Origin: Schmidtea polychroa
Lineage: Eukaryota
Assembly (NCBI GenBank): GCA_044892525.1
Contig: CM097886.1
Coordinates: 99,448,001 to 99,512,000, forward strand
DNA length: 64,000 nt
Direction of reading: 5' to 3'
The position numbers were made by a program, and so were the translations under genes. This document shows positions 22,922-47,451 of this stretch, in pieces. The notes beneath the pieces are model-generated. The model saw only the letters and a list, made by a program, of their open reading frames with translations. It was not told where the DNA came from and ran no database searches. The stretch's first letter is position 1. Each line of letters opens with the position of its first letter.

Positions 22922-22960
22922 CACGATTAATTTCGACAGTTTTCCTGTCATCATCAGGTG
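22922..22960 (-). ncRNA. Inverted copy of the minimal hammerhead motif
   Basis: Exact reverse complement of 23926-23964. Confidence 0.6.
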
Positions 22961-23736: not shown

Positions 23737-23925
23737 GCTTTTGTGTATTGTATGTATTGATTGTTGTGTTAAATTAAATAATTGATAAAAAAATTTAAAA
23801 TTTTTAAATTATTAAATTAAATTTTAAATGTTAAAGTTTTTAAAAAATAATATTTTTATAAAATAAAAAATTTTTATATATAATTAAATTTGTTTAAAAT
23901 TCTTTATTTAATGAGTATTATATCC

Positions 23926-23964
23926 CACCTGATGATGACAGGAAAACTGTCGAAATTAATCGTG
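23926..23964 (+). ncRNA. Minimal type I hammerhead ribozyme motif (Penelope pseudo-LTR)
   Basis: CAC-CTGATGA-T-GACAG(GAAAA)CTGTC-GAAA-TTAA-TC-GTG: catalytic core, 5-bp stem II, palindromic stem III (ATTAAT), AUC cleavage triplet and 3-bp stem I. Confidence 0.65.
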
Positions 23965-23970
23965 AAAAAA

Positions 23971-24098
23971 NNNNNNNNNNNNNNNNNNNNNNNNNNNNNN
24001 NNNNNNNNNNNNNNNNNNNNNNNNNNNNNNNNNNNNNNNNNNNNNNNNNNNNNNNNNNNNNNNNNNNNNNNNNNNNNNNNNNNNNNNNNNNNNNNNNN
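23971..24098. other. Assembly gap (N run)
   Basis: Run of N bases. Confidence 1.
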
Positions 24099-25644
24099 TA
24101 GTATTGTTAGTGTGAGTATTATTAGTCTTATTGCCATATGTAACACTAGTATGATTATTATTATTATTATTAATGCTATTAATATTATTATTATCATTTC
24201 CATCGTCTTATCTACTAGTGTCATCATTGCTAAACCTATTACTATCATGATTATTGTTGATCTCATTGGTAAACTTATATCATTAAAATAATTTCCCTCA
24301 TTTCTTCCGAAAATAAAATTTAAAGCCAAATTATTGACTTTGGAATTCCCCTATTACTAAATTTAACTACCCAACCTTATCTACCAATAAAATCCCGGAA
24401 AATCACTAAAATCTATTTTTAGCAACACCCCCCCCCAGGTAGACGGCGTCAGAGTATTAGTTTAAATTATATATAGGTACGCGAATGTATATATGCAGAT
24501 ATTGCGTGGGTGTGTAGGCAGTCATCTATACAAACGTGTATGTGTGTGGGCATAGAGATTCAAAGAATAATAAATATAAATCACCCTTGGGGTATCTTGG
24601 TCACAGCCGTTAGAATAACAAAATAGATAGGATCAATTGAAGCACCCCGCTAACATAATTTATTAATTCATCAGAAGGATTAAATTCATATACACATCAA
24701 AGCAAAATACAAAATTCCCAATTAAAAATAATTCGATTTACTTACCCGGAGGATTAAACTCGTATTCGAGTCAAAGTAAAATACCAAATTCCAAATTAAA
24801 CGTAAAATAACTTATTAAGGATTCAATTCATATTCAAATTAAGGCAAGTGCGAAAATCCACATTGAATTTAACATAGTTCACCAACTTACCCGGAAAATA
24901 AAATTCATATGCACATCAAAAACAAAATACAAAATTCCAAACATATGATTGTGGATCAATAAAATTACATAAGTCCACTCTGCATCGCAATTATACAAAA
25001 GTTTTAGAGCTCGACTTCAGAATCATCCTGAGGAGATGCATTTCCTATATCGCTCAGTGAGTGAGCCTTGTCCAATAAGGAGAAATTGGTTGGTAGAACT
25101 GCCCTCAGAATAAGCAAAACTTAGTACCGTATTAAATTATAGAAGTCTCACTTACCATGGGAATTTCTGGATTCCCTCACTAGAATCGCCAAGCTATCCT
25201 TGTTCATCTGGGGGCCATAATAGTTTATTGACCGATAGTAATTAATTCGAAAATTCGACCAGAAACTAATATTACTTAAATTAGTACTAAAAGCTTATAA
25301 GATAAAAATTACGTACTTGAATTTATTTACCTTATTATATCAATATTGACAAAAACCATAATTTAAAAATTATTGTTTAACCCTGATGATGATTGCTGTG
25401 ATAAAACAAGGAAGATTAAGATTGAAGAATGTTTGTTAATTTTAATAAATCATGAGTTGTAAAGTAAAAGGGTGTATTGATAAATTTAAATCCAAGTTTT
25501 AAGTTACTTGTTTCCCCTACTTGTAATAATCTAATAAATGAATTGCTATGTAAATTAAGTCTAAATAACCTGGTACATGGTACCTTAGCTCCGTTCGATA
25601 AGTTATTTTGGCCGTATAAAAATTGTAACATTTACATTACAGGC

Positions 25645-26010
25645 ATGTCTCAATCCAGCGTTAGCAACGACGAGGGTACTGACCAGCAGACGGTCACCCG
25701 GCTCCGGACCCGGTACATCTGGTACCATATACATCGGTGGGGTCAGGGGCGGGACCTGGATTGTGCAGAACGAGTAATCCGGACGGGCCCCGAAGTAGAT
25801 GCCCCGGCATGGGTGAAGGTGGAACCGGAGAATAACCGGTTGCAGGAGGCCCGAGATCAAGCGGCCTGGAATGTGGAAGCCGCTCAGATGCGACTCAGGA
25901 AGATCGAGTTGCAAATCCGGGCAGAAAGAGAAGGAGTGCCCGTGGAAGAGCTAAAAGAGGCCGAGGCTTCCCCACGGAAAAGAGGGAGACCCCGCAAATG
26001 CCAGTCGTGA
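25645..26010 (+). CDS. LTR-encoded 121-aa AT-hook protein (copy A)
   Basis: C-terminal PRKRGRPRK and a VKxE motif. It has the same length as 45983-46348 and 81/121 identical residues by hand count. Confidence 0.75.
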   Translation: MSQSSVSNDEGTDQQTVTRLRTRYIWYHIHRWGQGRDLDCAERVIRTGPEVDAPAWVKVEPENNRLQEARDQAAWNVEAAQMRLRKIELQIRAEREGVPVEELKEAEASPRKRGRPRKCQS

Positions 26011-26367
26011 TTGCAAGCTGACATATGACTTACTCTAACAATTTTCATTTATTGTGGGTAGCGTACTTGATAATCGAACTTGACTAATGTTTATTGTTAA
26101 ATAATAAGCTTTTATTCATTGGATATGTCTTAATTAATGATTAGCGTTTGTTGTTGAATAATAAACTTCTATTCCTTGAGTGGGTCTTAATTAACAATTG
26201 AAATAGGCTAAGGTATTATCGTATGTAGCGTTTCCCTTTTAATCGCGGTAGAGATAGCAAGTACAACAGCATCTCAGTGGCAAAATACCAGCACCGATTA
26301 ATCAATCTACCATTTGTTACTCCAATTTTTTTGTTGTATAAAATAAATAAAATTCTTTACATTTTAG

Positions 26368-26837
26368 TGTATAAGTTAATGGAGAATCTTCGGAAGGATC
26401 GGCAGCAGGCCCAACAACGTGCTGACGAACTCTGGGTCCGGGTGGACAAATTGAAAGTAAAATGTCGGGAGTTCGAGGGGACCTGGTTTAGTCCCGAAGC
26501 CATGAAGAAGAAAATGGCTCAGATCCTCCAGATGCAAACACAGGCCGCCCAAGACCAAATGGAGATCCGCGCCCTGAAGCTACAGGTGCGGGCGCTCGAA
26601 ACTGAGAAAAATGAGCAGTTGGTACAAGGGGCCATAGCAAGACAAATACGGCCACTGGCTGCGGACCTCGCAACTATATATCCCCCATCCGCTGAAAATA
26701 AGCCCAAAAGGAAACGGCTTGGCCGAACTATTCGGGAAAAATTGAAGAAAGCTAGGCTGGCCGAATACGAGCGGCAAGCAAATTCGTCACCAGCAACCAC
26801 GACGGAATTGGCCAGTCTTACCAATAAGTCTGTTTGA
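26368..26837 (+). CDS. LTR-encoded coiled-coil/basic protein (copy A); probably a terminal exon, first ATG at 26379
   Basis: Homologous to 46559-47028 (TWFSPE.MKKK, QMEIRALKLQ, KPKRKRLGR.IREKLKK). A TAG|TG acceptor is conserved at the same place in both copies. Confidence 0.7.
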
Positions 26838-28124
26838 ACTTATATTCGGTTTTAGGTGTCTTGTAGTATATTTATGTATTGTTGTAGTCTTCAAATAATA
26901 TGTTCCTTGGTAAAATAATGCATGTTTTGTAGTGATAAAATAATGACTAGTATAGTTTATGATTGCCTGGAAAATGAGAGTTTGTGCATAAGGTTGGGAA
27001 AACAATTTGGATGAGGGACCTGAGAAATCGGACACATACCTTCTATCGGTAGTCCGTGAACCCATGGAGTACTCGACAATTATAGTGCTTTGATGCGCTC
27101 ACTTTTTGCGAGTACTCAACCCTTGGTACAGTACCAACGTTGATTACTCAACGGGTACCAAGCGGAAAACCAATGTTGCATGTTGGGTTACGCTGGTAAC
27201 AGCACTTAATCATTCGACCACCAGTAACCCACCACATGCTTCGCCGTCGCCAGAAACGGTGGATATGTTAGCCTATTTGAGCAGAAACTGGAAATTTTGC
27301 GGTGGAAAATAATTGTTTATTTTTAATATTATTAGTACAGGCTGACGCAGGTTATGTAATATAACAGCATTTAGCATTCTTATTTTATTCATAAAAGCAT
27401 CGCAATGTTATTTGATTACAGTTTTAACTTTTAAAGTTTTAATATTTCTATTTTCTGTTCTTTTTGAGGCACTATAATCTTCCTCGGTTTACAATATTTA
27501 GTTCATAAAGCAATAACATCATTTTATGATATTATAGTTTTAACTTTTAATTTTCTGTTTTCTGCCTGAGTTTTTTTACTTGTTCAAAAATGATATAATT
27601 TTGAAAGTCAAACACTACGGAGAGAGATAAAGAGGAAGGAGAGGAAAGATAGAGAGATGATTTTTAAAAGTTTACCAAAGAGTTCATGCAAATAAATGTT
27701 TCTCCATGAATTGTGCTCGAAATATTTTAGTTAAGTTGGAGCACCTCTCCTCCACTCAATAAAGTCTGCATAAGTTTCACAACAAACTGCTCAGGGATAA
27801 GTAACTAATAGTTTTGTACGTCTTCACTGCATTTATTCATTCTTTCAATGAATCATCGTCTTCAGTAATAATTAAGCCTATGATCGGGTACCCGGGTGGG
27901 CCTTTTTGTGGTTTTTCACAGCACCACGCACGAATGCTCCCTAAATGTCTAGTTCAGCCCCATTGTAGCCTTTCCCTCCGTATGTGGTGTCTGAAGGATG
28001 GAACCTTAATGAAATGATATCACTAGAATTATTATAAAAAAAGAGGTCAGCAATTTTTATATTGAATCCAATTATAATTATCAACAATAATCACAGATAT
28101 TTCCCACCACCTTTTATAGGAGGC

Positions 28125-31100
28125 TCAACTTTCCAGGACGTTGTCATCAATCTCATATATAGTCAATGAAGCAATGTGATCGTTTTCAGGCATTATCTGA
28201 GCAAGGAATATTATTGAATGTTGAACGCACGAGAAATCACATTACCTCAAATATTAAATCGTCCACCCCGTAAGCCATCGTTTCGGAACACACACCAGAC
28301 TTGTGACATTGATCAATGAATCTACTGATTTCAACAGGAACCGGGTCGGCCCGGACCAAGATATGTGGTTGTATTTGAGACCACTGAAACAGCATAAGTA
28401 ATGACATTATGAAAAGAGAATCGAATAACTTTTGTAAGAGTTGCTACTTGGAATTTTGAAGCGATATTGTCCAGGTCGGGAATGATAATGTTGTCGACAC
28501 TGTTAACATCCCTATCGAGACTCAAAGAAAAAAAGCAACGGTAATATCTGATGCGAGGAAAGATTTATTAGATAGACAATTAAAGAAAACACCAACGTGT
28601 TAAAAAGATATTCGTCGGGGAAATTCGTATGTAAAATCAGCTTGGAGACGCAATTATCCTCAAATCGAAACATTATGTCAACACCAAGAGTCAGATAGTT
28701 GTAAAAATAGTCCGAATTTCTAAATTTAGGAATAATTGAATATTGAATGATCATTTTCAACCTGTTTTGCATTTTGCTTTCTAATTTTTCTTTTTGTGAC
28801 TTTGATGAATGAATTTTCATTTTATCTTCAGTTTTGAAATAAATTCGATTTGGCGCTCCCAAAGCTGTGATCACATACTGAACCGAATCACCGAATTTTA
28901 TACTTCGCTTGATTTTGACAAGTTTGTCATCTCGATTGCTGTTAATCGCTTGTAAATTCGAGCTGTTGACAACATTAGCAGAGTTCTCTGTCAATACCAG
29001 AAAGAAATCAAAACTTGAAGTTCTGTAGTCTTCTCGATTAATAACAAGTTCTTCTAAAAGAATATTTCCTAAAAAACATTCTAACGGTATTTCCTTTGGA
29101 ATATCGGCATCATTCATAGAATGGCCGTCATAAATGAATGCCGCTGTGGCGACGAGCGGGTTGATATTTCCGGATGGATAAATGCATTGCTGATTGGGAT
29201 TGATGTTGTGATTTATAGACGATAATGAAAACGACAACCCAGTCCGATAGGATAATAGATAGCACTTTTTATTGTTGTCGTAATCTGATATATAATGAAT
29301 ATATAGTAATGTATAGTTATATATATTTTTTCTTTTAAAACAAGGATACGTGACGCCTTGCCATTTCGTTTGGCGTATGTCGCGCTTGAAAATGGAATAA
29401 AGAAACTATATAGCGATAATTTACTATGGTAAATTATCGCTATACAAATATTGAAAAAGATAAAAAAATCAATAGAAGTAAAATTAAAAAATTCTAAATC
29501 GGAAAACTTGAGTAGTTTATATTTTCGAGTGGAATACTACTGAATAAACAGAACAAAAAGAGCTCGTCTATAATAAGGATCCCAAATCGCTCTAAAAGTC
29601 AGAAATAGCCTACAAACTGTTACCAAATCAGCTACAAAATTATCTACAAAATCATCTACAAGATCATCTACAAGATCATCTACAAGATCATCTACAAGAT
29701 CATCTACAAGATCATCTACAAGATCATCTACAAGATCATCTATCAAAATCATTATTAGACCTATTTGTCAAAATTCTCAATTTGTCAGGTTCGGGACCAA
29801 AACTTCGGGTGAAGTATAAAATAGTGTTTTGAATTAATTCTAACCGAAGTTAAACAACTAAGGTTTTACATTTTTTTGATAATAAAAGTTGTTGTTAATT
29901 AAGTTATTTATTATTAATATTTTTAATTATTGTAATTATCGTAACTTGTAGACCCAGCAAACATTCGCTAGTAACATACACGCACCCCGATTGTCCCGTC
30001 ACACTTTTTATCGGTGACTCTTTCGGGCTCTTCAAATCTCCTCTCACACATTACTTAAATACTTAAATACTTAAATACATATATATATATATAATTGCAA
30101 TAAATACAAAGAAATTTAAAGTAAACTATCATCCACCACGAGCCAGAAAATGTTAGTTGTAATGAAAATATCCACACTCAAATCAATCACCATCCAACCG
30201 TACAATTTCATGAAACAAACGAGAAAAGAAACTAAATTATGTAAAACATTATTTAACCAATCGTGTTAGGATACTTGAGTGTGAAAGAATTACATTGAAT
30301 TAGTGGTTTTTACCCCTAAATTATAGTCACATTCTATATGAGGATTTTTATACATTATTTATTCCAAACTTAATCTATTGAGTGATGATTTTGATGTCAT
30401 AATGACGGAAGTTAACACAAAATAGGAATGAGGGACATATTAACATTATTAAGATTCAATGTGTTTATCATAACTGCTTTTTTGCTTTGCGCACCCTTTA
30501 CCAGATCTTTTCACCAAATTGTAACCCCCATGTCTGAGAAATGTTTTCAATTTATTTATTTGCTTATATTTCAAATTAGTACGTTGTTACTGTAACTAAG
30601 CAATCGAATAATAATTAAAAACAATCAAATAACTAGTGAACATATTTATATTTAAACCTCAAAAATTAAACAATCTTAAGTTATTCAAACAATTTAAAGA
30701 AATAGATAGTTAAACGACATTAACTTTTAAAAATAATTATTGCTACCAATCAAATGTACAGATGAATTTCAGTTTCGTACATTACACATATTAGATGCTT
30801 GATTTCTTGAATTAATCACATCCATATTTCAAAAACAAAACAAAACTATATTTTTAAAAACAACACAAAATCTCTCTTATTTAAACAATCTCTATTTTTA
30901 GCCTAGAGGATATTTTCGCAAGCATGAGTTAATAATTGAATAGGGAATATTTAATAAATATTTTATATTTTAATTTTCAATCATTCTTGAATATATTTAA
31001 TTTATTATTTTAATTTATAATTTCATTATCTACTTTTATTATATTATTTAAATCTATTTAAATCTGGAAATTAAAAACTAATTCTATTTAATTACTTTCA

Positions 31101-34100
31101 CATCCCCCTTTTTTTAAAAGCTTTAGCCATTCTGTTTCTTATAATCCTTTTTCCATTCTCAAATTTTACTTCATAACTTCTCTCGTGTATTTGTTATATC
31201 ACTTCGGCAGGTTCAATATATCGATCCTCGTCTTTGTTGTTATCATTTCTTTTTACCAGCACTATGTCTCCTACTTTGAATTTTCTTTCTGTTATTTCGC
31301 TAAACCCATATTCTCAACCGACATATTTGTTGACCATTCTTTATATACTCCTTTTCCAAAAAACTCTTTCACTTTGGGTTTGTCTAATTGTTTTCTGAAA
31401 TGTAGAATTTAACATAAACTCAACTTCTGGTAATAACTTTACCCAATTCTTGTGATCTTTATCTTTTAGAGTGATATGAATGGCGTCTCTAATTGTTCTG
31501 AATTGTCTTTCGATTAGGCAATTTGCTGAATGATGGTACGGGCTTGAAAATATAACTTTAATGTTGTGCTCCTTCATTTAATTATCCATAGCTTTGCTCT
31601 CAAATGCTTTACCTGTGTCACAATGTAGAAATCTCGGCGCACCAAATTTTAAAATTCAATTATTTCTTAAAATTGTTGTAACGGTTTTTCGACTTGTGAT
31701 TTCACTGCGTGTAGTGCCACATATTTACTAAAATTATCGATAATTCCTACAATATATCTCATTCCATACTGACTTTGTTTTAGCGGTTCACAAAAATCTA
31801 TATAGTTTCAAATAAACCTGGATCTGGCATTTTGCAAATTTTCTCTCTATTTCGTGTTGTTGTAGTTTTCCTCTTTTGACAATTTTCATAACTTTGAACT
31901 AAGTCTTGGATCGTTCGTTTCATGTGACTCATTGAAAAATTATTTGACACGTTTCTCAGAAAATTAAAAAGGCCGCGAGGCAAATATTATCAAGGAGATG
32001 ACTTAGTTAAAACGCCATTAATCAATGCGATTATTTTAACTATATAAAGGAACTCAATTTTAGAAACAATCGGCATTTTTCCTCAGATACGAACGAACAA
32101 ATCGAGAGTAGGTAAAAAGGAAAGTTGTTAAAACTAGTAGATAGAATTAACGGAAGAAAAAAGAAAGGATCAAGTTAAGACAAATTATTAAAGAAAAGTG
32201 GTGATTATTTTTAAGAACGTGCAGAACTAACGCGGTCACAGCGAGATTTATCGAATAGTCAGAACATACGTTTTATTGCGATATTCGGAGTTTTGTAAAT
32301 TGTAAATTGTACGCATTCAAATGCAAATATACATTGAATATTGTTTGTTTAATTGCTTTTATAGAACACGTGGAGTCAGAAACACACTTTAATATTTATT
32401 TAAATGAAAACTCAACACAAGTGTATTTTCAATGATAGGCAATGATTGGACAATAATAGATTAATATTAAAATAATAATAATAATAAAATAAAAGTAAAT
32501 AAATTATAAAAATTAATAAAAGTAAGTGAATAATTATAAAAAATAGTAATTCTAATAAAATCATTTATAATCTAAATACATAATTTTCTATATAACAATT
32601 TATGGATGTAATGTTATTGAATTAATTATTAATTATTGATTAATTTTTATACTTGATTAATTTTTTTCAAGTTTTTAATTAATACACTGCTAGAACATGA
32701 AATTTAGAGTTTGACCGATTAATCGGTTACATTCATAATCGGGTCAAATCTTTGGACAATTGCCTTCCCATACGGCGCCGATTGTTCAATATTAGGAATT
32801 CAGAATACTCACTAAATTCGGTATTACTCTGACTTGACAACAAAATATAAAATCCAAAAACACCCTGTTGTATCGTTGTCTAGTTTTAGTGATATATATC
32901 ATTGAGCGATAACAACAGACCGTGTTATATAATTAAATTATATAATATCCAATGCGACATATGGAGGACTCGTAAGAAGAACCAAAATCAAACTTCAACT
33001 TCCAGGTTAGTTATGTTGGGTTATTGAGTTGGTGATAAATTGAATGTTACTCTGACTCCAAACGTGTCTTTATACGATTCACAAATAACACTTGACAACA
33101 GAAATCTTTATTGATAATCACAAATCAACTTTCTCTTTACACTGACAATCAATTCAACACTCTGCTTGGTGTCTATACAACACTTATTACAACACTCGGC
33201 GAGGAATAGCACTTGCGTATAACACCGGATTAAAAGATCACAAATTACTGATTGGTTTATCAACTGGGACTTTGAGCTGGTTGTTTTCTTTGACCTTCTT
33301 CACAAGTTTATTCAAATAATCAAGTAACTTCTCTTTGTTTAATTTTTCAACTAATTCTTTTATTCAAATCTTCTCCAACAATTATTCTTCACAATTATTT
33401 TCTTTACAATTCTTTTCACACTTATTTCTCCAACAGCATTTCGTCCGACGTTGTCTAATTTTCTCTAATAATTTTATCTCACAAATTGTCTCTCACTTTT
33501 CCAAATTTTGTTCTGCTTTCGTGTTCACCAGTTTTCCTTTATATAGTTATTTTGTTTATGGCACTGGTGACAGATTTTGTTTTCCCATTTCCATTTTCTT
33601 ATGCGTTCCCCGCTATGTCAGCCTTTTCTCTGACAGATGTCGAGATATTTTTCCTTTCTCTTTTTTGTTTAACCGCCTTCTCCCAGTAATTCTGTTATCA
33701 CTGGCAAGCTGTCGAGATAAGGATATTGTTGTTTTCCTTTTTTCCTGATTTCAAAATTCCTTTTCCTTTTTGTACTAATTAATAGTACTGACCTTGATTT
33801 TTATTTTCATGTTTGATTCCTTGTATTTCCTTTATCTTTCTCATTTTTAATTTCTTTTTACTTCCGTTTTCTTTTCCGTTTCCGTTATCTTCCCCCAGGT
33901 AATTTTATTTATTTAATTATAACTTGTTATTTAGGTGTCCTCGACAGTTATGTTTAAATATGATTATATAGGCGCAACTCAAAACCTACCTCTTCCGACA
34001 AGCCTACTCCCTACATGATATAATCACCTATACACGTCTCTAGTGACTTACTGATTGGCATGGAGACAGTATAAGTCCTTAACATATAAAAAAAACAAGG

Positions 34101-37100
34101 CAATGATTAAAACATTTCAAATTCTTAGACAATCGGATGTACCGATAAAAGATAATCGGTAGCATCGGGAATCGGTCAAGCTCTAATAAAAATAACAAAT
34201 TATCTAAAGCTAAAATTTAAACATCAAAAAACCCGTCATTGTGATGAATTATAGCTAGTGAAAATAATAATAATAATAACCAGGAGTTTTAGTGTATCCA
34301 AAAATGTTAATAATTTTCTCTTTTGTCGGTAAATCTGGAATTTCATTGAATTTTTTGTTGCTAAATCAAAAACATTCCTCAATACCGATAGAATTGAAAA
34401 TGATAAAAATTTCACAGTACAATTACATGTTAAAATCGAAGCAAATAAAAATATTCCTAGGCCAAACTATTCCAGTTGATGTCATCACAAACCAATAGGA
34501 AATATTTGAGCAAAAAAAATCCAGAAGGATTTAGAAACTGGGAAAACAGAATTCGAAAAGTTTAAGTTTTCCACTATTTCTCAGTTATATATGCGCATGT
34601 CTAATTACAATTATATTCTTCACTCCAACTCTACAGTCCCTCATTTGTTCCTATATTGTTGATACTGATACTGAAAATTGAATATATAAAAGTAGTTCTC
34701 CAACTAAATTTTGGGAAAATAAATTATTATTAGATATTATCACGTAATTGTAGGATTCATTCATTCCCGTCCCTTATGACTTACAGTGCACAGACATGAG
34801 ACACCTTGCAATCAGGGCGTAACTATGGCGGGGGGTGCATTCTCTCACCCCCCAATAAATTATTGATTACCAAATATAAATTAGGGATGAAATATTTTAA
34901 AAAAAACCTTTATTTTGGTTTTGTTATGAGAATTGAATGAGAATAAAAAAACAATGTATATTTTTAGTTTTTTTTTCAATTCAAACCCAAGACTACAACT
35001 ATGCTTGCGCTAGCTATTCTCGTAGTTTTTCAGTCTTTTCGGCACAGCAAAGTACATAGATGAGTGCTGGGTACATGTATCACTGTACTCGGTTACACGC
35101 GTACCCCCCACCCCACTTCTCCGTATTTCTATTTTTCCGTGTCAACTTTTAACATTGCTAGATGAATTTTATATAATTAATAATTTTGCCCCCCCCCCCA
35201 CCTGAAATCTTGGGCTACGTCCCTCTTGCAATTATATTTTCCTTATAATTAAAATTTCATTATAAATCCAATCAATCCAGCTCCATTTATGCTCCTCATT
35301 TCATATGGGAAAACTCGGAAAGTTAGTCAGCGATAACCATAAAATAGAAATTCCAAACCATTTGAAACCTTAATCGAATGTAAAACTGCCATTTAATGTA
35401 GGGGAAAGCAGAAACTGACCCCAATAACAACGCATCTCATTACAATAGGATTGCTAATGCCTACCAATCACACAAACTATGAACCCCGGATTATAAAGCT
35501 TCATTTCTTGACCCTTTTGATAGCCAACTTTCTCTTGCCTAAATCCTTCACTGTAATCATTGAAATAAAAATAATATTGAATAAAATATATTTAAAAATT
35601 GATTGCCAATAATTAGAAATATTTGGGCGATGGTCTAGAATAAGGATATGAAAAAAATAATAATAATCAATTAAAAATTAAATAATTAATAAAATATTTA
35701 AAATAATAAATTTTGATTCCTTAAAATGAAAAAACTTCCAAATCTCTTCGAAATAATCGAAATTACAAAAGAAAGAATGAAAACAATCGAGTATTTACAA
35801 TCTAAAAATGTTTTAAAAAGTGGATTTAATTGTACCTGTGGCAAGCAGATGTCATTAGTAAAAAAAAATACCTTAAAAGATGGTTATATTTTTAAATGCC
35901 CGAAAGCTTGTTCATCATTTTCGGTTAGAAAAAAGAGCTTTTTTGAGAAATCCAAAATTTCTCTCGAAAAGTTAATCTATTTAACGTATTTTTGGGTCAT
36001 GGCCATACCAACAAAAAAGGTTCAGATAATGTTAAAGTTATCAAATCAAACAATGGCAGATTGGAACAATTTCTTGTCCGAAATTTGCTCGACTTCTTTG
36101 TTGAATTTAAGTGAAGATGAGTTCAAAATTGGAGGTCCGAATTGTATCGTCGAAATAGACGAAACACTCATTTCAAAAAAAGCAAAGTACAACAAAGGAA
36201 AACGATATCCGGAAGTTTGGATGTTCGGTGGCATTGAACGAATAACAAATAAATGGTTTGCAGTTATTTTAGAAGATAAAACAAGAGAAACTTTAATTGG
36301 ACATATTAAAAAGTATATAAAACCAGGAACAACAATTTACTCTGATATGTGGCCCGGGTATTACACTCCACACGAATACAATGGAGGGACACTGGGGCAA
36401 TCTAAAAATGGATCTGCGGGGAAGAAGAGGCTGTTCCTTTGAATCTAAAATGTCATTTATTGACTTCAAGATGTGGGTTAATCGGCAGAAAAACAATGAA
36501 GAGCATTTATTAAACATGTATTGGATGGCCGTTTCTGCTATTTATGAATAAATTTATGATTCGATATTATTTTAAATATTTTATTAATTATTTAATTTTT
36601 AATTGATTATTATTATTTTTTTCATATCCTTATTCTAGACCATCGCCAATATTTGGATATAATAAAAATGGACAAATATTTGAACAAGAAAAAACAATAA
36701 TTCAATCAAGTTCATCCAGGCAGTTGGTGTTTGATTGCCATAATCTCTTAATGGGATCATACATTCATAATTATAAGGACGAATTTATAAGATTTAGGCA
36801 TATGATAATCAAGCTTGCCTCAATGCCATCACTATATAGATAACTCAAAGTAAACAATTGAAGCAACCCATTGCTAAATTAAGGTGTTAAAAGTATATTT
36901 TATCCTTATCGTTACAAAGTATCATATTTAGTCAATAATATATTCTACAATTGTTAAACTACCAAAAAGCATTAATGATTTGCCTTACCAGTAATATAAA
37001 GAAACCAAGGATAAATCGTAGATTTCAATCATCTGTTGATTAACCACGATAAAGATTAATTAAAACATTATTATTTTTACTTTTAATCTTTGGACTTTAG

Positions 37101-37335
37101 AATCAAAAATTAATTTAATTCCTTCATTAAAAAGAGTAATAATTATATCCATATGCATTGGAACTTTATAAGAATACAAAAAGTCAACTTTCTTGAAATA
37201 ATCATCCGTGTGATTGGAAATGATATCAATAGCTTGATTTATTGGCATTCCGATTATAAATTTCCAATTTGGAATTTCAAAATTTTGATACAAGCTGTAT
37301 TCCACTTCAATTGTCAATTTAAGATCTTTCTTCAT
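28125..37335 (-). CDS. PHAF1: PHAF1/C16orf70 (UPF0183) homolog; exons 37335-37081, 37032-36989, 34360-34281, 29284-28597 (possibly split by a 42-nt intron at 28761-28720), 28547-28430, 28383-28246, 28196-28125; 464 aa (450 aa if the extra intron is spliced)
   Basis: The GT-AG joined exons total 1395 nt in frame. They match C16orf70 motifs: WKFIIGMPINQAI..QRLK, LPT..I..FG, FGDSVQYVITALGAPNRIYFKTEDKMKIHS, DYFYNYLTLGVDI..LHTNFP, YYRCFF, LIFE and HIASLTIY. Confidence 0.9.
29641..29745. repeat. 12-bp tandem repeat (TCTACAAGATCA, about 8 copies) in PHAF1 intron 3
   Basis: Read directly from the sequence. Confidence 0.9.
31103..31990 (-). pseudogene. Degraded Ty3/gypsy integrase with a polypurine tract
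   Basis: Zn-finger remnant (MKRTIQDLVQSYENCQKRK) and core SSPYHHSANCLIERQFRTI. On the minus strand AAAAAAAAGGGGGA is followed by TG at ~31102. Confidence 0.7.
33014..33946. mobile_element. Solo LTR (933 bp)
   Basis: TGTTGGG...TCGACA ends, 4-bp TSD GTTA, homologous to 14224-15611. Confidence 0.85.
33960..34085 (+). mobile_element. Possible 3' tail of an L2/CR1-type LINE
   Basis: CTCAAAACCTACCTCTTCCGACAAGCCTAC (LKTYLFRQAY) is followed by a short 3'-UTR-like stretch. Confidence 0.45.
34813..35224. mobile_element. hAT-type MITE in PHAF1 intron 2
   Basis: 8-bp TSD CTTGCAAT; imperfect TIR CAGGGCGTAAC / GCTACGTCCCT. Confidence 0.75.
35626..36647 (+). mobile_element. Merlin (IS1595/ISXO2-like) DNA transposon in PHAF1 intron 2
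   Basis: ~85-bp TIR beginning GGCGATGGTCTAGAATAAGG and 8-bp TSD AATATTTG. Confidence 0.9.
35726..36551 (+). pseudogene. Merlin transposase with an internal deletion and frameshifts near the C-terminus
   Basis: VEIDETLISKKAKYNKGK..WMFGGIER..TIYSDMW are in frame. HTNTMEGHWGNLK lies in another frame, and the NHS..FVDP segment is missing. Confidence 0.85.
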
Positions 37336-37645
37336 TGACTAAAAAATAGATAAAAGTTAATTATTTAAAAAACGAAATATTTATCAAAATGACCTTAGAG
37401 AGATTAAAACATTTGAACCACAGATAAAATTCCAATTTGTCCATTTCGAAATTTTTCATAATATTAAATTCATTACAACATCAATGTATATATTTCTTTT
37501 CATTTTATGATATAGGTATACTTGTATCTTGTTCGATATGTTGATATCCAAATCAAATTCCTTGGCATTTTTATATACCAAGGGTCTTAAGCTGCATCGA
37601 AATGGCACTGATTTTTATTATATAATGAATAATGCTAGTGTAAAT

Positions 37646-37941
37646 GGTTCTAGGAAAAAATGTCTCCGGACAAAATGTTATGTGGACAAAATGTAATTGG
37701 ACATAATGTCATGGACAAAATGTGGACAAAATGTACATACTCAGAGTTTATCCGACAAAATATTTTGTCCCCCTATGGGTATTGGTCGCAAAGGTACTGA
37801 TCACACTCAACATGTCGCAATGGTATATTATCAACAACATTTATACCATGACATTTTGTCCACGGCATTTTGTCCGCGACATTTTGTCCAATGACATTTT
37901 GTCCACATAACATTTTGTCCACGACATTTTGTCCGGCCACC
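37646..37941. mobile_element. MITE with GGACAAAATGTC subterminal repeats, ~310 bp upstream of the PHAF1 ATG
   Basis: 8-bp TSD GTGTAAAT and mirror arrays of GGACAAAATG / CATTTTGTCC. The core is shared with 391-445. Confidence 0.8.
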
Positions 37942-38663
37942 GTGTAAATTAATTGTTGACTAATAAATTAATCTTTAAAATATATGTTCTATTTTTATAT
38001 TAGAATTTATTTATTTTAATTAAAGTGTCAATAACCTCACGAATCTTTATAATCGTTAAGTATTTTTAACTTTTGCAAAATTCATAATTTTTAGGTAATT
38101 ATAAAAAAATTTATCTAGTATCACTCCTGTATTTAACAGCTTTCTTATTTAGGGGTATGTTGTTCACGAAACGAAAACAAAGATGAAACAAAATTTATTC
38201 ACATGGGCATTTATATTCTGACCAGTTAAATTTCCTAACAACCATCGTCGACTCTCATTCGACCACTCATATCCATCGATTTTGGTGTAACAGTTTTTTG
38301 TTAACTTTCATTATCTAATAAATCATCTAATACATTCAAAAAATATTTAAAATCGCAACCACTTCAATAAAAAGAATAATAAAAATGGCGATAATTAAAA
38401 CAAAATATCAATATTATGTAACTGTGAATCTGATTGCGTAAATATATGTACTGTATAAACACCGATGATTATGTAATAGTGTTGGTGTTTATTGGAAAAA
38501 GCGAGGTGGGGAATCAATTAACTCTTTACAAACGCCAAGTATTTACAGATTTCCGACCAATGTACCCAAGACGATCTTCATGTTGGTGCTGTACACTGTT
38601 ATCCAGAGTCAGGAGATAGGTGAGCTCCTATCTTACAACTACTCCCTCCCATACTCTCTAACT

Positions 38664-41121
38664 CAGTGGTGCCCAACCTTTTTATCAAGTGGGCAACTAT
38701 TTAAATGAAAAAGTCTTTGCGGGCACATTTTTGAAAAATTAGTTAATAGAAAAATGATCTTATAACAATCTTTTTATTAGGAAACATGCATTTGTATTAA
38801 AAATTTAAAATAATAAAAATAATAATGTGAAACAAAACAAACAAATTTATTTATAACATCATTTTAATGCGGCTTTTGAATTTGAGTCTGGCTAACAAGT
38901 TGATCAATATCAGGATTGATTTTTGAATTTGATAATAGAATGAGGTTTTCCAAGTGAGCATCAGTGAGTGAACATCTGAATTTGCTTTTTATGTAGTTCA
39001 TTGAAGAAAATGTCTTCTCACAAATGTAAGTTGATCCAAATTTGACCACAAACCGGAGTGCCATGTTGTTAAGTTCAGGATAGTCATTTTTTGGAACAAG
39101 CTTCCAGAATGCTTTTAAGTCGGGTGAAATAGGTGATTCGCAAAGCTCTTGAAACTTTCTCTTTAATCCTGTGTGGTTTTGAATGTCAGTAATTTCCATC
39201 TGTATTTTTGGAGAATACTTGCTGATTTCACTTTCTGATATAGAGAATGGATTAATGAACAATAAAATGTTATCCTTCTCTGCCTCAAAGTCAGAAAATC
39301 GAGAAGAAAATGAATGAGACAAATTCATAATGGCAAGTTTGTATTTTTCATAGTCCAAGTTGACAGTGATTGAACTTTCAAGTTGAAATTTCTGAAGCGT
39401 GGGGAAAAGATCCAGATTTCCTTGAGAAAGACTGTTATAAAACAGTTTTAATTTTGCCTTAAATGCATTGATTCGATTGAATAGTGTTGGGAACAAACTA
39501 TTTTCACCTTGCAATCCTGTGTTCAAGATGTTCAGGTAATTTGTGACATCAACAAGAAAAGCCAATTCACTCAACCAGGAATTGTTTTTCAAAAGATCAC
39601 ACTCGGTAGGCAACTCTTTTTTTTCTTCCAAAAATTGCAGTACTTGGGTCCTTAACTGGAAAAATCTTGACAGCATTTTTCCCTTTGACAACCAGCGAAC
39701 AGAGCAATGGAGCAAAAGTTCACCACAATCATCGGTTTCCTCTTCAAACAGGGATCGGAACTCTCTTCTATTTAGAGATCGTGCTCTAATCTTGTTAATA
39801 CAGTGCACAGCTGTGTCAATAACATGCTTGAATTCCATATCCTTTGAGCAAAGAACTTCTTGATGAATAATGCAATGGTACTTAAAAAGTTTTCTTTTTA
39901 GATATTTTTCTAGAAGGGAAACACAACCGTTGTTTTTTCCAACCATTGCAGGAGCTCCATCTGTGCAGATACTTTCCAGTTGATTCCAGTTGAGCTTATA
40001 CTCGTTGATGCTTGAATTTTCCACACAATCTTTCAGTGCTTCAAAGATATCGGCTCCAGTTGTTGTGGTTTTCAGTTGACAAAGGCCAAGAAGTTCCTGA
40101 ACAACATCGAAGTTTTCATTGACACATCTTATATAAACCAGTAATTGAGCACTGTCAGTTGCATCACAGCTTTCATCAATTGCAATTGAAAAGTATTTTG
40201 AAAGTGAAGCAGCAACAATAATTTGTTTTGAGACATCATTGGCCATTTCTTCAATTCTCCGAGTAACTGTATTTCTTGAAAGTGCTATGTTTTTGGACAG
40301 CAATTTGTTTTTTGGGTCACCTGAGTTTTCAGCAAAAATAGAAATTGCCTCTTTTACCATTTCACCATCTGAATAACTTTTTTTTAATCTGGCAAGCAGC
40401 AGGGAAATTTGAAATGAAGCTTTTGTCATACCGTGCATTTCTTCTTGTCTTTTGGTAAAAAATGTTTGCTGAACTGCAAGTTTCGATTTTCTCTTTGAAA
40501 TAAAGTCAGTTCTGTCTGCAGATCCAATTGGGTATTTGATTTTGAATTCTGAATGCATCTGATTAAAATGACGTTCCAAATTGTATTTTTTATAGACTGC
40601 AACTGTGTCATTACAAATCAGACAAATTGGCCTTGATGATTGTGAATGTGTGAACAAAAATTGTTCTTCCCAGTTATTTCTTAACACTTGTTGCGCAGAT
40701 TTTTCATCTTCACGTTTTCTTTTTTGAGACATCCCTTTGCTGAGAGACATTTTTGTAAAAACAAAAATTATTTTTTTTATTTGGATAAATTGTTGTCCAC
40801 ACTGAGAGATTGTTTTTGGTTGACTGATTTAAATAGAGTTTTTTAACTAACGATGTAACGATATTTGAATTAATTAATTTTAATTTAAAGTAGGAAAAAA
40901 TTTAATTTTCTTGGAATTCCCATTTAATAATTAATTGTTGGGATTGATTAATTTTAATTTCGAAAATTAAAAATGCGCTTGTAATTCTCATTGAAACATT
41001 ATACATCTTAATGTTAAAAATTGATATTTTCTTTAACCGTATTTAGAAAAACACCCACGGGCATTTGAAAAAGTCTCCACGGGCACTTTTTTGCCCGCGG
41101 GCACTAGGTTGGGCACCACTG
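38664..41121 (-). mobile_element. Full-length hAT transposon (Charlie/Buster/SPIN-like)
   Basis: Perfect 16-bp TIR CAGTGGTGCCCAACCT and 8-bp TSD CTCTAACT with central TA. Confidence 0.95.
38864..40750 (-). CDS. Intact hAT transposase (GTF2IRD2/EPM2AIP1-like), 628 aa
   Basis: BED-like CLIC..RH..H, catalytic-type D (IAIDESCD), D (CTDGAP) and E (YICEKTFS), CIIHQE and RWLS motifs; no stops. Confidence 0.92.
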   Translation of the reverse strand: MSLSKGMSQKRKREDEKSAQQVLRNNWEEQFLFTHSQSSRPICLICNDTVAVYKKYNLERHFNQMHSEFKIKYPIGSADRTDFISKRKSKLAVQQTFFTKRQEEMHGMTKASFQISLLLARLKKSYSDGEMVKEAISIFAENSGDPKNKLLSKNIALSRNTVTRRIEEMANDVSKQIIVAASLSKYFSIAIDESCDATDSAQLLVYIRCVNENFDVVQELLGLCQLKTTTTGADIFEALKDCVENSSINEYKLNWNQLESICTDGAPAMVGKNNGCVSLLEKYLKRKLFKYHCIIHQEVLCSKDMEFKHVIDTAVHCINKIRARSLNRREFRSLFEEETDDCGELLLHCSVRWLSKGKMLSRFFQLRTQVLQFLEEKKELPTECDLLKNNSWLSELAFLVDVTNYLNILNTGLQGENSLFPTLFNRINAFKAKLKLFYNSLSQGNLDLFPTLQKFQLESSITVNLDYEKYKLAIMNLSHSFSSRFSDFEAEKDNILLFINPFSISESEISKYSPKIQMEITDIQNHTGLKRKFQELCESPISPDLKAFWKLVPKNDYPELNNMALRFVVKFGSTYICEKTFSSMNYIKSKFRCSLTDAHLENLILLSNSKINPDIDQLVSQTQIQKPH

Positions 41122-41268
41122 CTCTAACTGGTTCGCAATTGCCGATAGGTCTTTCGTCAAAGGTTGTCATACGAAACGGGGCTGCTGTGATTTCCTTGGT
41201 TATTTTATCTTTACCATAGATCCTTTTTCAATTTTTTATCTTCAATTCTTTTTTAAACTATCAATATA

Positions 41269-41476
41269 CCGTAGAGTGCCGATTTTAATACCATGGTACA
41301 CTATATGGAAAACGCCAAAATTTTGATTTACTTTGAAATCCAAATATTATACCAGATACACTATTTGGTTTATTATACCATGGTTTATTGTACCATGATA
41401 TAATATTTAGCACTTTTTAAAAATAGTATACCACTGGTACACTATTTGGGGAGGTATACTATTCGGCACTCTACGG
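41269..41476. mobile_element. Tc1/mariner(pogo)-type MITE
   Basis: TIR CCGTAGAGTGCCGA / TCGGCACTCTACGG flanked by TA. Confidence 0.7.
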
Positions 41477-41499
41477 TAATATTTTTTATATCGCTGGCG

Positions 41500-42520
41500 T
41501 TTGGATGAAGAACTAAGCAAATGTGTGGCCTCAGTGCTGAAACATCAATGATTTGGAAAAACGACGATGGTCATGTTGGTCCTGCACACTATCGGTGAAA
41601 AATAAAGGACAGGTAAGCTACTGCCTTATAACTAGTCTCCTTTATATTTCGTGAGGGTTCTGGACGGCCGTAATAAGGACTTACATCTGCTGGCAACAGA
41701 TTTCAATAGCGATATTGCTCTACGTTGAGAATGTCCATTTCAACTCTGATACTGATTAGTTTCCACTTCTTTTCTCGAACCTCTCAACAAACAAAAAAGG
41801 GAAAACGGTAATTTCCGAAATAAAACAAAACACAGAAGACAAAATAAATACTATATTCACAACGAAAAATCCGGGCCAAGATTAATAGTACCTGATTTTC
41901 ATGATCGAATTCATTTTCCATGCCCAGAGTTTGGACCTCCTTGAGCATTTCGATAGTGAGATTGGGCGGATTTAGGACTTTTTGGAGCTGAGCCGATCCT
42001 GCCACTTTTCTCGCTCGTTTTTTTCGCGTTTCTCTCCGCTTTAGATAAGTTTCTCCGTTTCGGTTTAGGATTCCATGGCACCGGTATAGGTACGTTCAGG
42101 TCAATGACGGGTGCGGCCACCGGTGGAACATTGGTGTTTACAAAAAGTAGAATGCGCTCTGAAGTTGTTAAGAACGAATATCCTGCGCACGACGACGGAA
42201 CAAGAAATTCTGGCATTAACTGTTGGCTGGAACGATGGTGTGGCTGGCCATGGCTTTGTAGTTAGACACTCTGAAGGCCAGCTCCTTGACTGTATAACCG
42301 GTACAGAGCCTGCGATTTCTCCTTTACCAGGGTTCAGTGTGCCGCATTTTCCGTAATGAGGTGTTCCTGCAGTGCTCAAGACGGTGTAATTGTTTGGTCT
42401 TCTCCTGAATCTAGAGGGGCGATAACCATGTGCCATCCTGTGGGTCGATCTTAGCCCAAAATAAGCGATTCTCCTTCTTGACGAGCGCCAGCTGGGCATT
42501 CTTGTCAGAGCAAGAAAAAC
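41500..42520 (-). mobile_element. Remnant of another related LTR (minus orientation)
   Basis: A basic ORF remnant (PKPKRRNLSKAERNAKK) is followed on the minus strand by the structured motif at 41572-41687, the same arrangement as in the other LTRs. Boundaries are unclear. Confidence 0.4.
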
Positions 42521-45500
42521 AAGGTTTAAGACTGCTGGAGGTGGTTGTCATAATACCAATAAATTGTCTGGATTTGGTGAAAATCTAAGTTAATAATTTA
42601 TTGATTATTTAGAAGATTCTTAACTTGGCACTCCTCACTGATGATAACCTTAACTGGACTGGATCTGAGATATCAATAACCCCAATTTTAATGACTTAAA
42701 TGATAATAATGTCCCGATTAATACGCAACAGAATTTTAGGAAATGCAAAAAGTGGTTGGCCCGAGAATCTTTCCGTTTTCTCTCCGCGATTGACCAGTAT
42801 CATTGGGGACCTTAAATGGGCCCTTAGAATTGTCCGTGTCAATCTTAACTATGGATAATGACCCTAATAACGACGACACTACTAGTGATAATCACGCTCC
42901 TAATAATCTCAATGCTAATAATAACACTAGGAGTACTAATGGCAACAATGATTATCATACTGAAATCAAGGGCAATAATTATAATAATTATGCGAAGGAT
43001 AAAAATTTAAGAAAAATTCTAATATTAATCCTTCTGATGATAATACAAATGATAGAACTTGTGATCGTTATAATGGCGGAACTTATTGTTGGGCTAGAAC
43101 TGATTTCTAGACCCAAAATACTAATTGTGACTGAAGCGCGTAGGTACACAGCAAGAAAAAAAGCACCAAGTATAGTTAAATATTAAAACCTACACCAAAT
43201 AAACAATATTAACTAAAGGAGAAAGCAACAAAAACATAAACAAAGAAATTAAACAAAATTATACAAAAGCAAGAAGTGATGCAAAAATCTAACTCAAAAA
43301 TAACCAAATAAACACAGGGTTACAAAAAACAGACTCGAATAACTTAAAAGACGATAAAAACAGTAAAACATTCCAGAAAAACCCAGAACATTCTATAAAA
43401 ATGGCGATGACCATCACAAAAGTTATCTAGAACAACAAAAGTTAAGGAAAATAAATAAATTAGTATTAAAAGTAAAAAATCTCAAAAAGAATTCATAAAA
43501 ACATCAGTTAAAATAAAAATTAAATTAAAAGTAAAATAGAATGTTCTGGAACCGTTCCAAATCCATCATGGACGTAAAATTAATGAAAAATAATTAAAAA
43601 ATAAAAATATAAAAATAAAAACAAAAATTATGGCACAAAAATTGCCATTAAAAATAGCAAAATCGTAAAATAGAAAATTCTGGAATAAAAAGAATTCGAG
43701 TTTGTTTTAATGCATCAATACATACACGTGTACTAAATAGGTATATATACCGACACGTTTCAGTCACAATAATCACTTTTATGCCAAATTTTTGTGACGA
43801 AATTTCCAAAATCGATAGTAAGCATTGATCTTTATTTGTATATTAATTGTTTAATTATATAGATGGTATTTTAAATTTATTTTTTTTTTTTTTGCTTAAA
43901 ATTTTTTGCGATGTATGAGTGATCAACGGCGTACTGGTATTCCTGCGTCGTTGTTCAGTCCTGCATCCAATTTATTAAAATCGTTATTAACAGGACATGC
44001 AGACACGCATTATCATTATTATAGTGATATTTATTATATGATTCCTTTTTGTTCGGGTCAGCCGGAGGTCGAACTACTTCATGGTCCTGCCATGGAGTTA
44101 GGTCGAGGAAACCCTCCGCCTGACTCTTCGTATTTATTTAAGGTCAGCCGTAAATGGTTGACTTAGCACACAACACTAAGGTTTGTGGACGTGGTCACAG
44201 TGGGGCCATGGAAGCAATATTCTTCCCGACTCATTGCGTAATATACAATTAAACTCAACACTTAAAATCCTGAACAATAACTCTACACTAAGGTTCTAAT
44301 TTGAGTAGAGCTCGTACCTAAAATTACACAATTCTACACTCACATTAATGTAGCTAGTTGATTCATAATGGTAATTTCAATTATACTTAGACATATGCCG
44401 AACTAGATTTTGTAGTAAGGATCTTTGATAAAGTAATAGAAATAAGAGAGATATTCGGCATACGTACAGGTATAACTTGATCTAGATATGCTGATTCCGA
44501 GTAAAGATAGACATTTTAAATCTAGTTCCCACTTTAAAATGTTTGTAAATGTGTAGGCTCTTAGTTATAATATTCTTGTTGTTAACTATAAAACTATAAG
44601 TTATAAATAATTACGATAGCTAGGTACAAATCACGTCGATCCTGAAAATGTAAATTGTTAATGGAGAAAGTCTGATCAGAGATAGTAGTAAACAATTTTT
44701 CGTATAAAATCAACTTAGGATTGGTTACAGATAGGCGATAGACGCGCTAGAACCCTGAAGTTTAATCCACAAATAGGACCAGGAAATCTGTAAGTACTGC
44801 GGAAAACAATGTTGATCATAGAAAGGAAGTTGTAAGAAGTATATTCCGTCGACTAAAAATTTCAAATTATAAAGTACGAAAATACGAATTACAAAAGTAT
44901 AAATTTTAGATTATAAACTTATAAATTATAAGTTAAGCAATTATAACTTATAAAATATGAATGTATAAATTTCAAAATATGAAATTATAATTATAAATTA
45001 CAAGATGGTAAATCCCTAAATTGAAAAATTTTAAATTATAAATCGAAAATTATCAAAGTATAAATTATAAAACATAAATTTATAATTCTAAAACATGGGA
45101 TTATAAAATTGTAGTTATCATAATCCTGATCATTTCTCTTGTTATTACTATTAGCAGTATCAACATTATCATTACTATTAGTATTATTATACTTATTCTT
45201 ATTATTATTATATTATTATTATCATTATTATGAATATCATAATTAGTATTATTATTATTATCATCATTATCAGTACCATTATAAAAATTTATTATTATTC
45301 TTGTTATTATTATTATTAGTATTATTATTATTACCATTATTAAAATTTATTATTATTCTAATTAGTATTACTATCATTGCTATTATTAATATTATTATTA
45401 TCATTATTATTATTATTATTAGTATCGTTATTTCATTGTTATTATTATTGGTATTATTACAGTTAACTACAAAAAAATCGATATCCCAATCCGATAACGA

Positions 45501-45982
45501 TCACCTGGAAATTTAGAAATTAGCAAATTAAATAAATTACTTGTATGCAGAGCAAACCACTCATAACGAGCACAACCGAAGGAAAGGCAAGCAGACGAGA
45601 AGCTAAGCTCGTTGTTAATACCTGTCGCCTCAGCGTACCCGAATTTAGTGGCAAAAGATTTAAACCCTGAAATTTTAAATTCGTGATAATATTTACATTA
45701 AAATACAAAAAATATAATTTAAATGTTCACTTAGTGATAAATACAAATTTAGAGAAAAATAGTTAATTAAAACAAGAGGATGGTTGATAAATTTTTTTTT
45801 GGGTTATTAGTAGACAAAATATGAAATTTCATTCTATGGTTCCTAGGATTATAAATGTTGGTCTTAAAATAAAATATTTCTTTTCATTTTCAAATTCTTA
45901 AAGGGAAAAAGGGTCAACAAAATCCTGTGTTTAACGTCGTATTACAATCAGTATAAAGTGGCTTGATTGTTCTTTTGTAGAA

Positions 45983-46348
45983 ATGTCCTATTCTGACAGT
46001 GATAGTAACGAAGCAGCCGACCGGCAGATGCTTACACGACTCCGGACACGGTACATATGGTACCGTATCCATGATTGGAACCGGGGCTTGGACCTCGACA
46101 ACTGGGGCCCAGTAATCAGGAGTGGGCCGGAACCGGACGCCCCAGCGTGGGTAAAAACAGAGCCCACAAACGATTTTTTGCAAGAGGCCCGCGACCGAGC
46201 GGCCATCGAGGTAGAAGCAGCTCAGATGCGACTCAAGAAGATCGAGCTACAAATCCAAGCAGAAAAAGAGGGAAAAACCGTGGAGGACCTAGAAGAGGCC
46301 GAGGCAACCCCGCGGAAGAGGGGAAGGCCTCGCAAGCGATTGAACTGA
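45983..46348 (+). CDS. LTR-encoded 121-aa AT-hook protein (copy B)
   Basis: PRKRGRPRK and VKTE motifs; ortholog of 25645-26010 with many synonymous differences. Confidence 0.75.
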   Translation: MSYSDSDSNEAADRQMLTRLRTRYIWYRIHDWNRGLDLDNWGPVIRSGPEPDAPAWVKTEPTNDFLQEARDRAAIEVEAAQMRLKKIELQIQAEKEGKTVEDLEEAEATPRKRGRPRKRLN

Positions 46349-46558
46349 CTCATCGTCAAAATTTTGTTTTTGCAAATTATCATTCAGTTGTGACTTTATT
46401 AAACTTTGATTTTAGTGATAATTATTTCAGTCCTTTTAATAAATCATCTTGTGTATTGCGTACTTGACATCCGAAACTATGTTTATTTATAATATTGATT
46501 TTATTTTATAATTGAATGAATAGCATGCTGCAAGAATATAATCGTTGAATTTATCTAG

Positions 46559-47028
46559 TGTTCAAACTATTGGAAAATCTGCGAAGAGATAGGGCAGAAG
46601 CTCAAAAACAGTCCGAGGAGCTCCGCATACGCGTAGACAAGCTCAAGGGACGGTGCCGGGAACTAGAAAGCACCTGGTTTAGTCCCGAGGATATGAAAAA
46701 GAAGGTGGCGCAGGTCCTTCAACTGCAGACGCAAGCCGCGCAGGATCAGATGGAGATCCGGGCACTGAAGCTCCAGCTCCGCGTGCTAGAAACCGAGCGA
46801 AATGAACAAGTAGTTCACGGAGCCGCCATAAGCCAAATCCGGCCGTTGACCGTGGAACTAGCAGCAATATACCCCCCGGCCGCGAAAGAGAAACCCAAAA
46901 GAAAGCGGTTAGGCCGAAATATTCGGGAAAAATTGAAGAAAGCTAGACTGGCCGAACACGAGCGACAAGCAAATTTGTCACTGGCAGCTGCGACGGAATT
47001 GACCAGTCCTACCAATAAGCCTGTTTGA
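46559..47028 (+). CDS. LTR-encoded coiled-coil/basic protein (copy B); no in-frame ATG near its start, likely spliced
   Basis: Homolog of 26368-26837 with a TAG|TG acceptor at 46557-58. Confidence 0.7.
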
Positions 47029-47433
47029 ACTTATATTCGGTTTTAGGTGTTTTGTAGTATTTTTATGTATTGTGGTAGTCTTCAAATAATATGTTCCTTG
47101 TTAAAATACTGCACGTTTTGTAGTGATAAAATAAGGACTAGTACAGTTTATGATTGCCTGGGAAATGAGAGTTGTGCATAAGGTTGGGAAAACAATTTTG
47201 ATAAAGGGACCTGAGAAATCGGACACACACCTTCTATCGGTAGTCCGTGAACCCACGGAGTACTCGACAACTATAGTGCTTTGATGCGCTCACTTTTTGC
47301 GAGTACTCAACCCTTGGTACAGTACCAACGTTGATCACTCAACGGGTACCAAGCGGAAAAACAATGTTGTATTTTGGGTTACGCTGGTAACAGCACTCAA
47401 TCATTCAACCACCAGTAACCCACCATACAAATT

Positions 47434-47451
47434 TGGGGGCTCAGCCGGGAT
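47434..47451 (+). promoter_or_regulatory. Primer-binding site, tRNA-Pro type
   Basis: TGGGGGCTCAGCCGGGAT is 16/18 identical to the canonical Pro PBS TGGGGGCTCGTCCGGGAT and lies 8 nt after the LTR end. Confidence 0.85.

Follow-up and report, generated by a model that had tools for sequence, protein, structure and literature searches.

The giant gypsy-like retrotransposons of planarians, Burro and GYPSM1, are longer than 30 kb, have long terminal repeats (LTRs) of 4-6 kb and encode a polyprotein of ~4,800 amino acids (aa) (PMC6431247). Their CCHC, MATH, env-like fusion, protease, reverse transcriptase, RNase H, integrase and ankyrin domains, and their accessory open reading frames (ORFs), are also those of the element studied here, but section 7 of the published description mentions no gene within the LTRs (PMC6431247). 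We analysed 64,000 nucleotides of the Schmidtea polychroa genome (assembly GCA_044892525.1, contig CM097886.1, positions 99,448,001 to 99,512,000, forward strand), called the window below, which contain a solo LTR and the 5′ LTR of a full-length Burro-like element. Each LTR holds two frames, ORF A and ORF B, which are under selection in two LTR families and are accompanied by conserved acceptor and donor sequences.

Retroviral genes that overlap the LTR are known, namely sag of mouse mammary tumour virus, nef of human immunodeficiency virus (HIV) and bel of foamy viruses. These accessory genes are part of U3 and precede the start site, whereas the planarian LTRs hold two frames downstream of the predicted promoter. 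The start codon of Drosophila gypsy env is formed at a splice joint, as AT|G (PMC2585583; bioRxiv 2023.08.03.551782), and gypsy and insect endogenous retroviruses offer either such a splice-made start codon or an ORF joined by splicing to a short leader peptide. There, env is internal to the element; here the predicted joint is A|TG, and donor, intron and both ORFs are inside the LTR. In Caenorhabditis elegans Cer1, unspliced RNA is exported by the spliced CERV protein (PMC10309623). With CERV and HIV Rev the planarian system would have in common an accessory protein made from a spliced message, with a zipper-like helix and a basic signal, and a genomic RNA that contains splice sites; no sequence or fold link to them was found, CERV is encoded outside the LTR, and export is proposed here by analogy (PMC10309623). 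HMGA and other AT-hook proteins resemble ORF A in their GRP core with flanking basic residues, but HMGA has three hooks (PMC11354804) where ORF A has one, below the Pfam cut-off, with no similarity beyond the motif. Additional ORFs of plant retroelements have been reviewed as internal-region genes (PMC7264820). Separate parts of the system therefore have precedents (LTR-overlapping genes, splice-made ATG, CERV), and their combination was not found in our literature searches. Full-text searches returned no report of genes inside Burro LTRs; figures or supplements, Grohme 2018 and Lee 2026 may show the frames.

Results

The solo LTR (20518..27234, + strand, family I) has TG...CA ends and a 4-bp target-site duplication at its flanks, and the 5′ LTR of the full-length element (43087..47425, +) measures 4339 bp. 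That they are the pair of one element was ruled out: they belong to different subfamilies, one is solo and the other has its own partner downstream. An earlier note on this DNA was right that each encodes ORF A (25645-26010 and 45983-46348), with 121 aa in both copies, no gap and 81 of 121 residues identical, and that conserved residues are encoded by synonymous codons (ACC/ACA, CGG/CGA and ATC/ATA, at codons 18, 19, 22 and 25). The 118 base differences between the copies are distributed as 28, 29 and 61 over codon positions 1, 2 and 3, and 38 identical residues are encoded by different codons. Pairwise non-synonymous divergence (dN) is 0.255 for a synonymous divergence (dS) of 1.72, and pN/pS is 0.32 (bootstrap 0.23-0.44). 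When the 118 substitutions were placed at random, the frame stayed open in 36 of 2000 trials, and at most 61 residues remained identical. All five other frames of the region have stops, with a pN/pS above 1 in four of them; it is 0.36 in the antisense frame sharing its wobble position with ORF A. The middle of the LTRs, described by the note as unalignable, consists in part of a later insertion in the solo LTR (22505..24098, with two N runs), which does not align to a sister LTR; the remainder is diverged AT-rich sequence, with an identity of ~40-67% in each 100 bases.

A second frame, ORF B, lies downstream of ORF A in both LTRs (exon B, 26368..26837 and 46559..47028, both +); the earlier note overlooked it, as well as the splicing design described below. 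ORF B encodes ~156 aa, coiled-coil-like and basic, with a Lys/Arg-rich segment. No conserved methionine is present near its start, and the first 46 codons of the 5′ LTR copy contain no ATG of their own. The copies are identical at 115 of 158 positions (dN 0.16, dS 1.40), and ORF B is more conserved than ORF A. Homologue searches with ORF B found one unnamed family II-like protein (P0001; family II is described below) and none in viral contigs; matches in the Atlas and PDB were generic coiled coils. A third repeat family (window 5592-6376, −; loci L083-L094) has a distant ORF B relative of ~240 aa, with an EGTWF segment and a basic patch in common and an hhalign probability of 90%. Its genome search gave 5682 candidates, the window copy is broken into two frames, and no ORF A relative was found within 1.5 kb. 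Of two short frames adjoining the full-length element (41911-42547, −), one has a basic patch that resembles that of this third family.

Genome searches were scored for the best 150 of 2699 and the best 150 of 2530 candidates with ORF A, numbers that are not copy numbers and whose best-scoring matches are biased towards intact copies, and for the best 150 of 5607 candidates with ORF B. Through a diverged ORF B, a second LTR family (family II) was reached, which shares only its first 800 and last 220 bases with family I. It keeps both frames, as well as the GRPR hook core and the KxEP motif of ORF A; its ORF A (154-166 aa) is 33-37% identical to that of family I, and its ORF B 36-40%. Compared with the family II loci L120-L134, the ends of the 5′ LTR (43087-43890 and 47206-47425) are ~85% and 80% identical, and the ORFs 34-40% identical as proteins. 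LTR ends so much more alike than the ORFs suggest recombination, or strong constraint on the ends.

The dN/dS ratio across genomic copies, which the earlier note had proposed to measure, indicates purifying selection on ORF A (omega of 0.28-0.31). In the codon model, omega was 0.284 for ORF A in family I (43 sequences) and 0.305 in family II (10 sequences), and for ORF B 0.170 (19 sequences) and 0.233 (13 sequences), respectively. Twice the log-likelihood gain over omega = 1 was 164 and 121 for ORF A in families I and II, and 359 and 132 for ORF B. Left out of these fits were 3 of the 46 distinct family I ORF A sequences, family II ORF A frames of less than 140 codons, and broken or duplicate ORF B sequences. 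We conclude that ORF A and ORF B are almost certainly real genes.

Synonymous to non-synonymous changes in family I ORF A were 21:49 when private and 108:61 when shared (Fisher p 2e-6). For ORF B the values were 39:66 and 132:41, and the contrast was weaker for family II ORF A (62:69 and 66:42, p 0.04). In family I ORF A, the private changes look neutral. Of 25 family II loci retrieved by way of ORF B, only 10 had a full-length ORF A. The private/shared contrast and this last count mean that constraint acts on replicating lineages, and that inserted copies decay. Among 37 long loci, both LTR ends were found in 25, of which 16 are solo, 6 have a primer site downstream and 3 have neither. Solo LTRs do carry the gene, as the earlier note stated, but solo copies keep it passively.

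In exon A (25643..26010 and 45981..46348, both +), the acceptor is followed by two bases and then by ORF A. The AG that the earlier note saw immediately before the ATG is there in both copies, but at −4/−3, two bases away. A YAG and exactly two bases precede the ATG of ORF A in 33/33 distinct family I contexts and 15/17 family II hits. In exon B, TG comes right after the acceptor: AG|TG marks the ORF B start in 46 of 47 distinct segments (anchored 36 codons downstream), its G is fixed, and none of 3 other invariant four-fold residues keeps its third base. Branch-point-like and pyrimidine-rich sequences can be seen by eye upstream of both acceptors.

A CACGTG-TATA block lies ~650 bases into the LTR, with a strong donor 78-91 bases downstream. 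TATA-like block and predicted exon 1 span 21168..21251 in the solo LTR (+, ATG at 21209, donor after 21251) and 43740..43817 in the 5′ LTR (+, ATG at 43781, strong donor after 43817), and in both the exon's last base is an A. This A is found at the donor of all 27 LTRs with a TATA block, via four different triplets. A single leader ending in A would account for both spacings, since it would form the ATG of ORF B and give ORF A a purine at −3. From exon-1 ATG to donor, family I lengths are 34, 37, 40 and 43, all in phase 1 (18/18), so that an in-phase ATG would add 11-14 residues. In five family II loci (L120, L121, L123, L125 and L126) the exon-1 frame ends in a stop two bases short of the donor. 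This stop would lie just ahead of the junction ATG and might allow termination followed by restart. Splicing from A to B was rejected because ORF A has no conserved phase-1 GT, and a coding exon within 700 bases upstream of A because the sequence is not conserved. Judging from these signals, a design in which a short leader is spliced to A and to B is probable. The U3/R/U5 borders are putative, as neither the start nor the poly(A) site could be located.

Among runs on record as RNA, none was found to contain the stretch. Run X1 is no more than guessed to be RNA. One of its contigs, of 613 nt, connects 44250-44412 with 46221; it therefore lacks 1.4 kb or more and has no room for the intron. This suggests a middle exon whose end is near 44432 or 44469, the first donor being outside the contig's reach. 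The contig bears on the splicing of A indirectly, and none was found for B. Two extra candidate donors, after 44432 and after 44469 (44432..44470, +), could close such an optional exon. Breaks in contig coverage, and A-rich loose ends at about 43440-43479, were left unused, as they fit divergence and internal priming. Between donor and acceptors lies a 185-nt block (copies at 21494..21678 and 44045..44231, both +), whose identity reaches 90% or more in 21 of the 22 family I LTRs. It is predicted to fold on the sense strand (z ~−3), with weak covariation, and had no Rfam match at family threshold; family II has its own block at this position.

Residues of ORF A invariant in both families are L20, R21, W26, I29, H30 and W32 (in the core RLRTRYIWY.IH.W), K58, E60 and P61 (in KxEP, 58-61), and G114, R115, P116 and R117 (in the AT-hook-like motif, 110-118). 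Hook core and KxE thus persist across families at ~34% protein identity. The SUMO acceptor consensus is hydrophobic-K-x-E. The VKxE site already pointed out in the earlier note is present at residues 57-60 (VKVE/VKTE), and in 45 of 46 family I ORF A sequences; family II has P ahead of K (PK[VI]EP). PRKRGRPRK, at residues 110-118, agrees with the definition of the AT-hook, a GRP core with flanking basic residues (PMC4615771), but the "perfect HMGA-type" hook of the earlier note is too strong a description, as the motif is under the curated Pfam cut-off. AT_hook (PF02178) gave 13.5 bits for copy 1, versus a cut-off of 17.4, and no match at E<=0.1 for copy 2; across ORF A members, 7 of 16 match at E<=1, the best at 0.0054. 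RGRP is found in 44/46 distinct family I sequences, and GRPR in all 16 aligned ORF A sequences. No ORF A homologue outside its own genome was found among 34 candidates, 7277 candidates and 1.84 billion representatives, nor in metagenome contigs, PDB sequences or the Atlas. The predicted model has two helices and disordered ends, at low confidence (pTM 0.30-0.31), and structural comparison of the predicted folds gave no match.

Counted in window positions, the full-length element starts at 43087 and ends at 77535 (34.4 kb), between TTAT target-site duplications. Its 3′ LTR is 30,110 bp downstream, beyond the window, with 1 mismatch to the 5′ LTR. The primer-binding site (47434..47451, +), which we take to be tRNA-Pro-like, is downstream of the 5′ LTR, and the polyprotein frame (51246..64000, +, 4791 codons) continues beyond the window, with CCHC knuckles, MATH, fusion glycoprotein, protease, reverse transcriptase, RNase H, integrase and ankyrin domains. 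With a total above 30 kb, multi-kb LTRs and a single giant polyprotein with the expected domains, the element is, on its sequence, young and Burro-like, with an env-like domain, an assignment made by description. The polyprotein carries an AT-hook-like RTRGRPK at codon 1672 (56259). A RING-finger ORF (48152..48634, +) is immediately 3′ of an AG, and several internal accessory ORFs (this one and those of L061/L062) begin 0-3 bases after an AG, which suggests many spliced subgenomic messages. The insertion in the solo LTR has perfect inverted arms of 341 nt (22916-23256 and 23630-23970); its 101-aa frame includes a YIGET motif and is presumably Penelope/GIY-YIG-like, which Pfam did not confirm. 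Elsewhere in the window are a terminal-inverted-repeat element with an IS1595/ISXO2-like transposase (35621-36652), an open hAT-like transposase of 628 aa (38864-40750), and a host frame which we assume to resemble a proteasome beta subunit (11993-12619, −).

Discussion

We take the selected two-gene LTR cassette, as read from sequence, to be real and a variant of retroelement accessory genes. In the mechanism that we propose, transcription would start downstream of the TATA block, ~650 bases into the LTR, and a short leader exon 1 ending in A would be alternatively spliced to exon A or exon B. Joined to exon B it would create the start codon A|TG; joined to exon A, directly or via the optional middle exon, it would put an A at −3 of ORF A. 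ORF A, with its hook, KxEP and two helices, might then act on chromatin or transcription in a Tat/Tas-like manner, and ORF B, with its coiled coil and basic segment, on unspliced RNA in a Rev/CERV-like manner. These two steps are the most speculative. With a strong donor so early in its RNA, the element would need an export route for unspliced RNA, which favours a pair of self-regulators. By analogy, we give slightly better than even chances to the pair regulating the element's own expression, and regard this exact split of roles between A and B as less likely than not. We also lean, by a little, towards the explanation as a whole, that is two selected LTR frames, alternatively spliced and likely encoding nuclear self-regulators.

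Several observations weigh against this explanation. Copies share ancestry, and conservation counts are therefore not independent. The count of ORF B starts omitted 8 loci, where the anchor mismatched, 10 of the 37 LTRs examined gave no TATA block, and the exon-1 ATG is stopped in 2/18 family I and out of phase or stopped in 7/9 family II sequences. The joining contig begins in the middle block, its letters between the join points are not known, and that its run is RNA is a guess; in three other contigs the acceptor of A, or the passage from A to B, looks unspliced, and no read crosses an exon 1-to-A or exon 1-to-B junction. The structured block may lie in the optional exon, and has a change on both sides in only 1 of 53 pairs. 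In the sequence and structure searches no homologue or fold points to a function, and the single hook, which overlaps a basic patch, may serve for nuclear localisation and nothing more.

The reading of the frames as relics without expression, or as sequences preserved for reasons at the DNA or RNA level, would agree with the lack of a run on record as RNA with the stretch and of protein evidence. It is nevertheless highly improbable: synonymous change is saturated and yet residues are kept, in two frames and two families, and nucleotide-level constraint would leave no slack at third positions. The earlier note saw in ORF A a self-targeting anti-silencing factor bound to the AT tract of the LTR. 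Burro elements are piRNA targets (PMC8532177), hook core and KxEP are invariant in both families, and the tract, which in the 5′ LTR lies with AT-rich repeats within the predicted intron (44850..45460) and is (ATT)n-like, scores as strong (80 or more, the same threshold for both families) in 19 of the 22 family I LTRs (copy 1 partly masked). However, it is strong in just 4/15 family II LTRs, which keep the hook, and weak at locus L077, where the hook is intact. The tract is thus not universal and does not travel with the hook, so that binding of ORF A to it is unsupported; in addition the whole genome is AT-rich, and AT-hooks bind RNA besides DNA (PMC11354804; PMC4615771). We consider this reading unlikely.

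Selection on replicating lineages would also suit a role of A and/or B in integration, where they would anchor the pre-integration complex to chromatin, the task that LEDGF performs with its AT-hooks (PMC11354804). As a link to integrase would have to be assumed, and separate spliced expression from the strongest donor would better suit early regulators, such a role seems improbable. Host pathways (chromatin, stem-cell or stress control) could instead be the targets, as for the element's apoptosis-related cargo: the element encodes RING, MATH and ankyrin domains, and Burro1 IAP was reported to aid regeneration (via PMC13465017). No host homologue turned up in the searches, though, and private changes of family I ORF A that look neutral mean that host-level selection does not maintain those copies, which makes this quite unlikely. 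To come back to self-regulation, in its strongest form every LTR would be a complete transcription unit for two genes, with promoter, leader exon, introns, and Tat-like and Rev-like genes, past the start site. We hold this form to be rather doubtful. If true, an invertebrate retroelement would have independently evolved the regulatory circuit of a complex retrovirus, and thousands of solo LTRs could provide regulators in trans.

Burro elements are abundant and expressed, and are reported to affect planarian stem cells. A and B are small, junction-specific candidates, accessible to RNA interference, for the transcription control and unspliced-RNA export of a 34-kb element. If an LTR-contained gene pair with a splice-made start codon is confirmed, solo LTRs, which are repeat-masked, would become potential sources of proteins.

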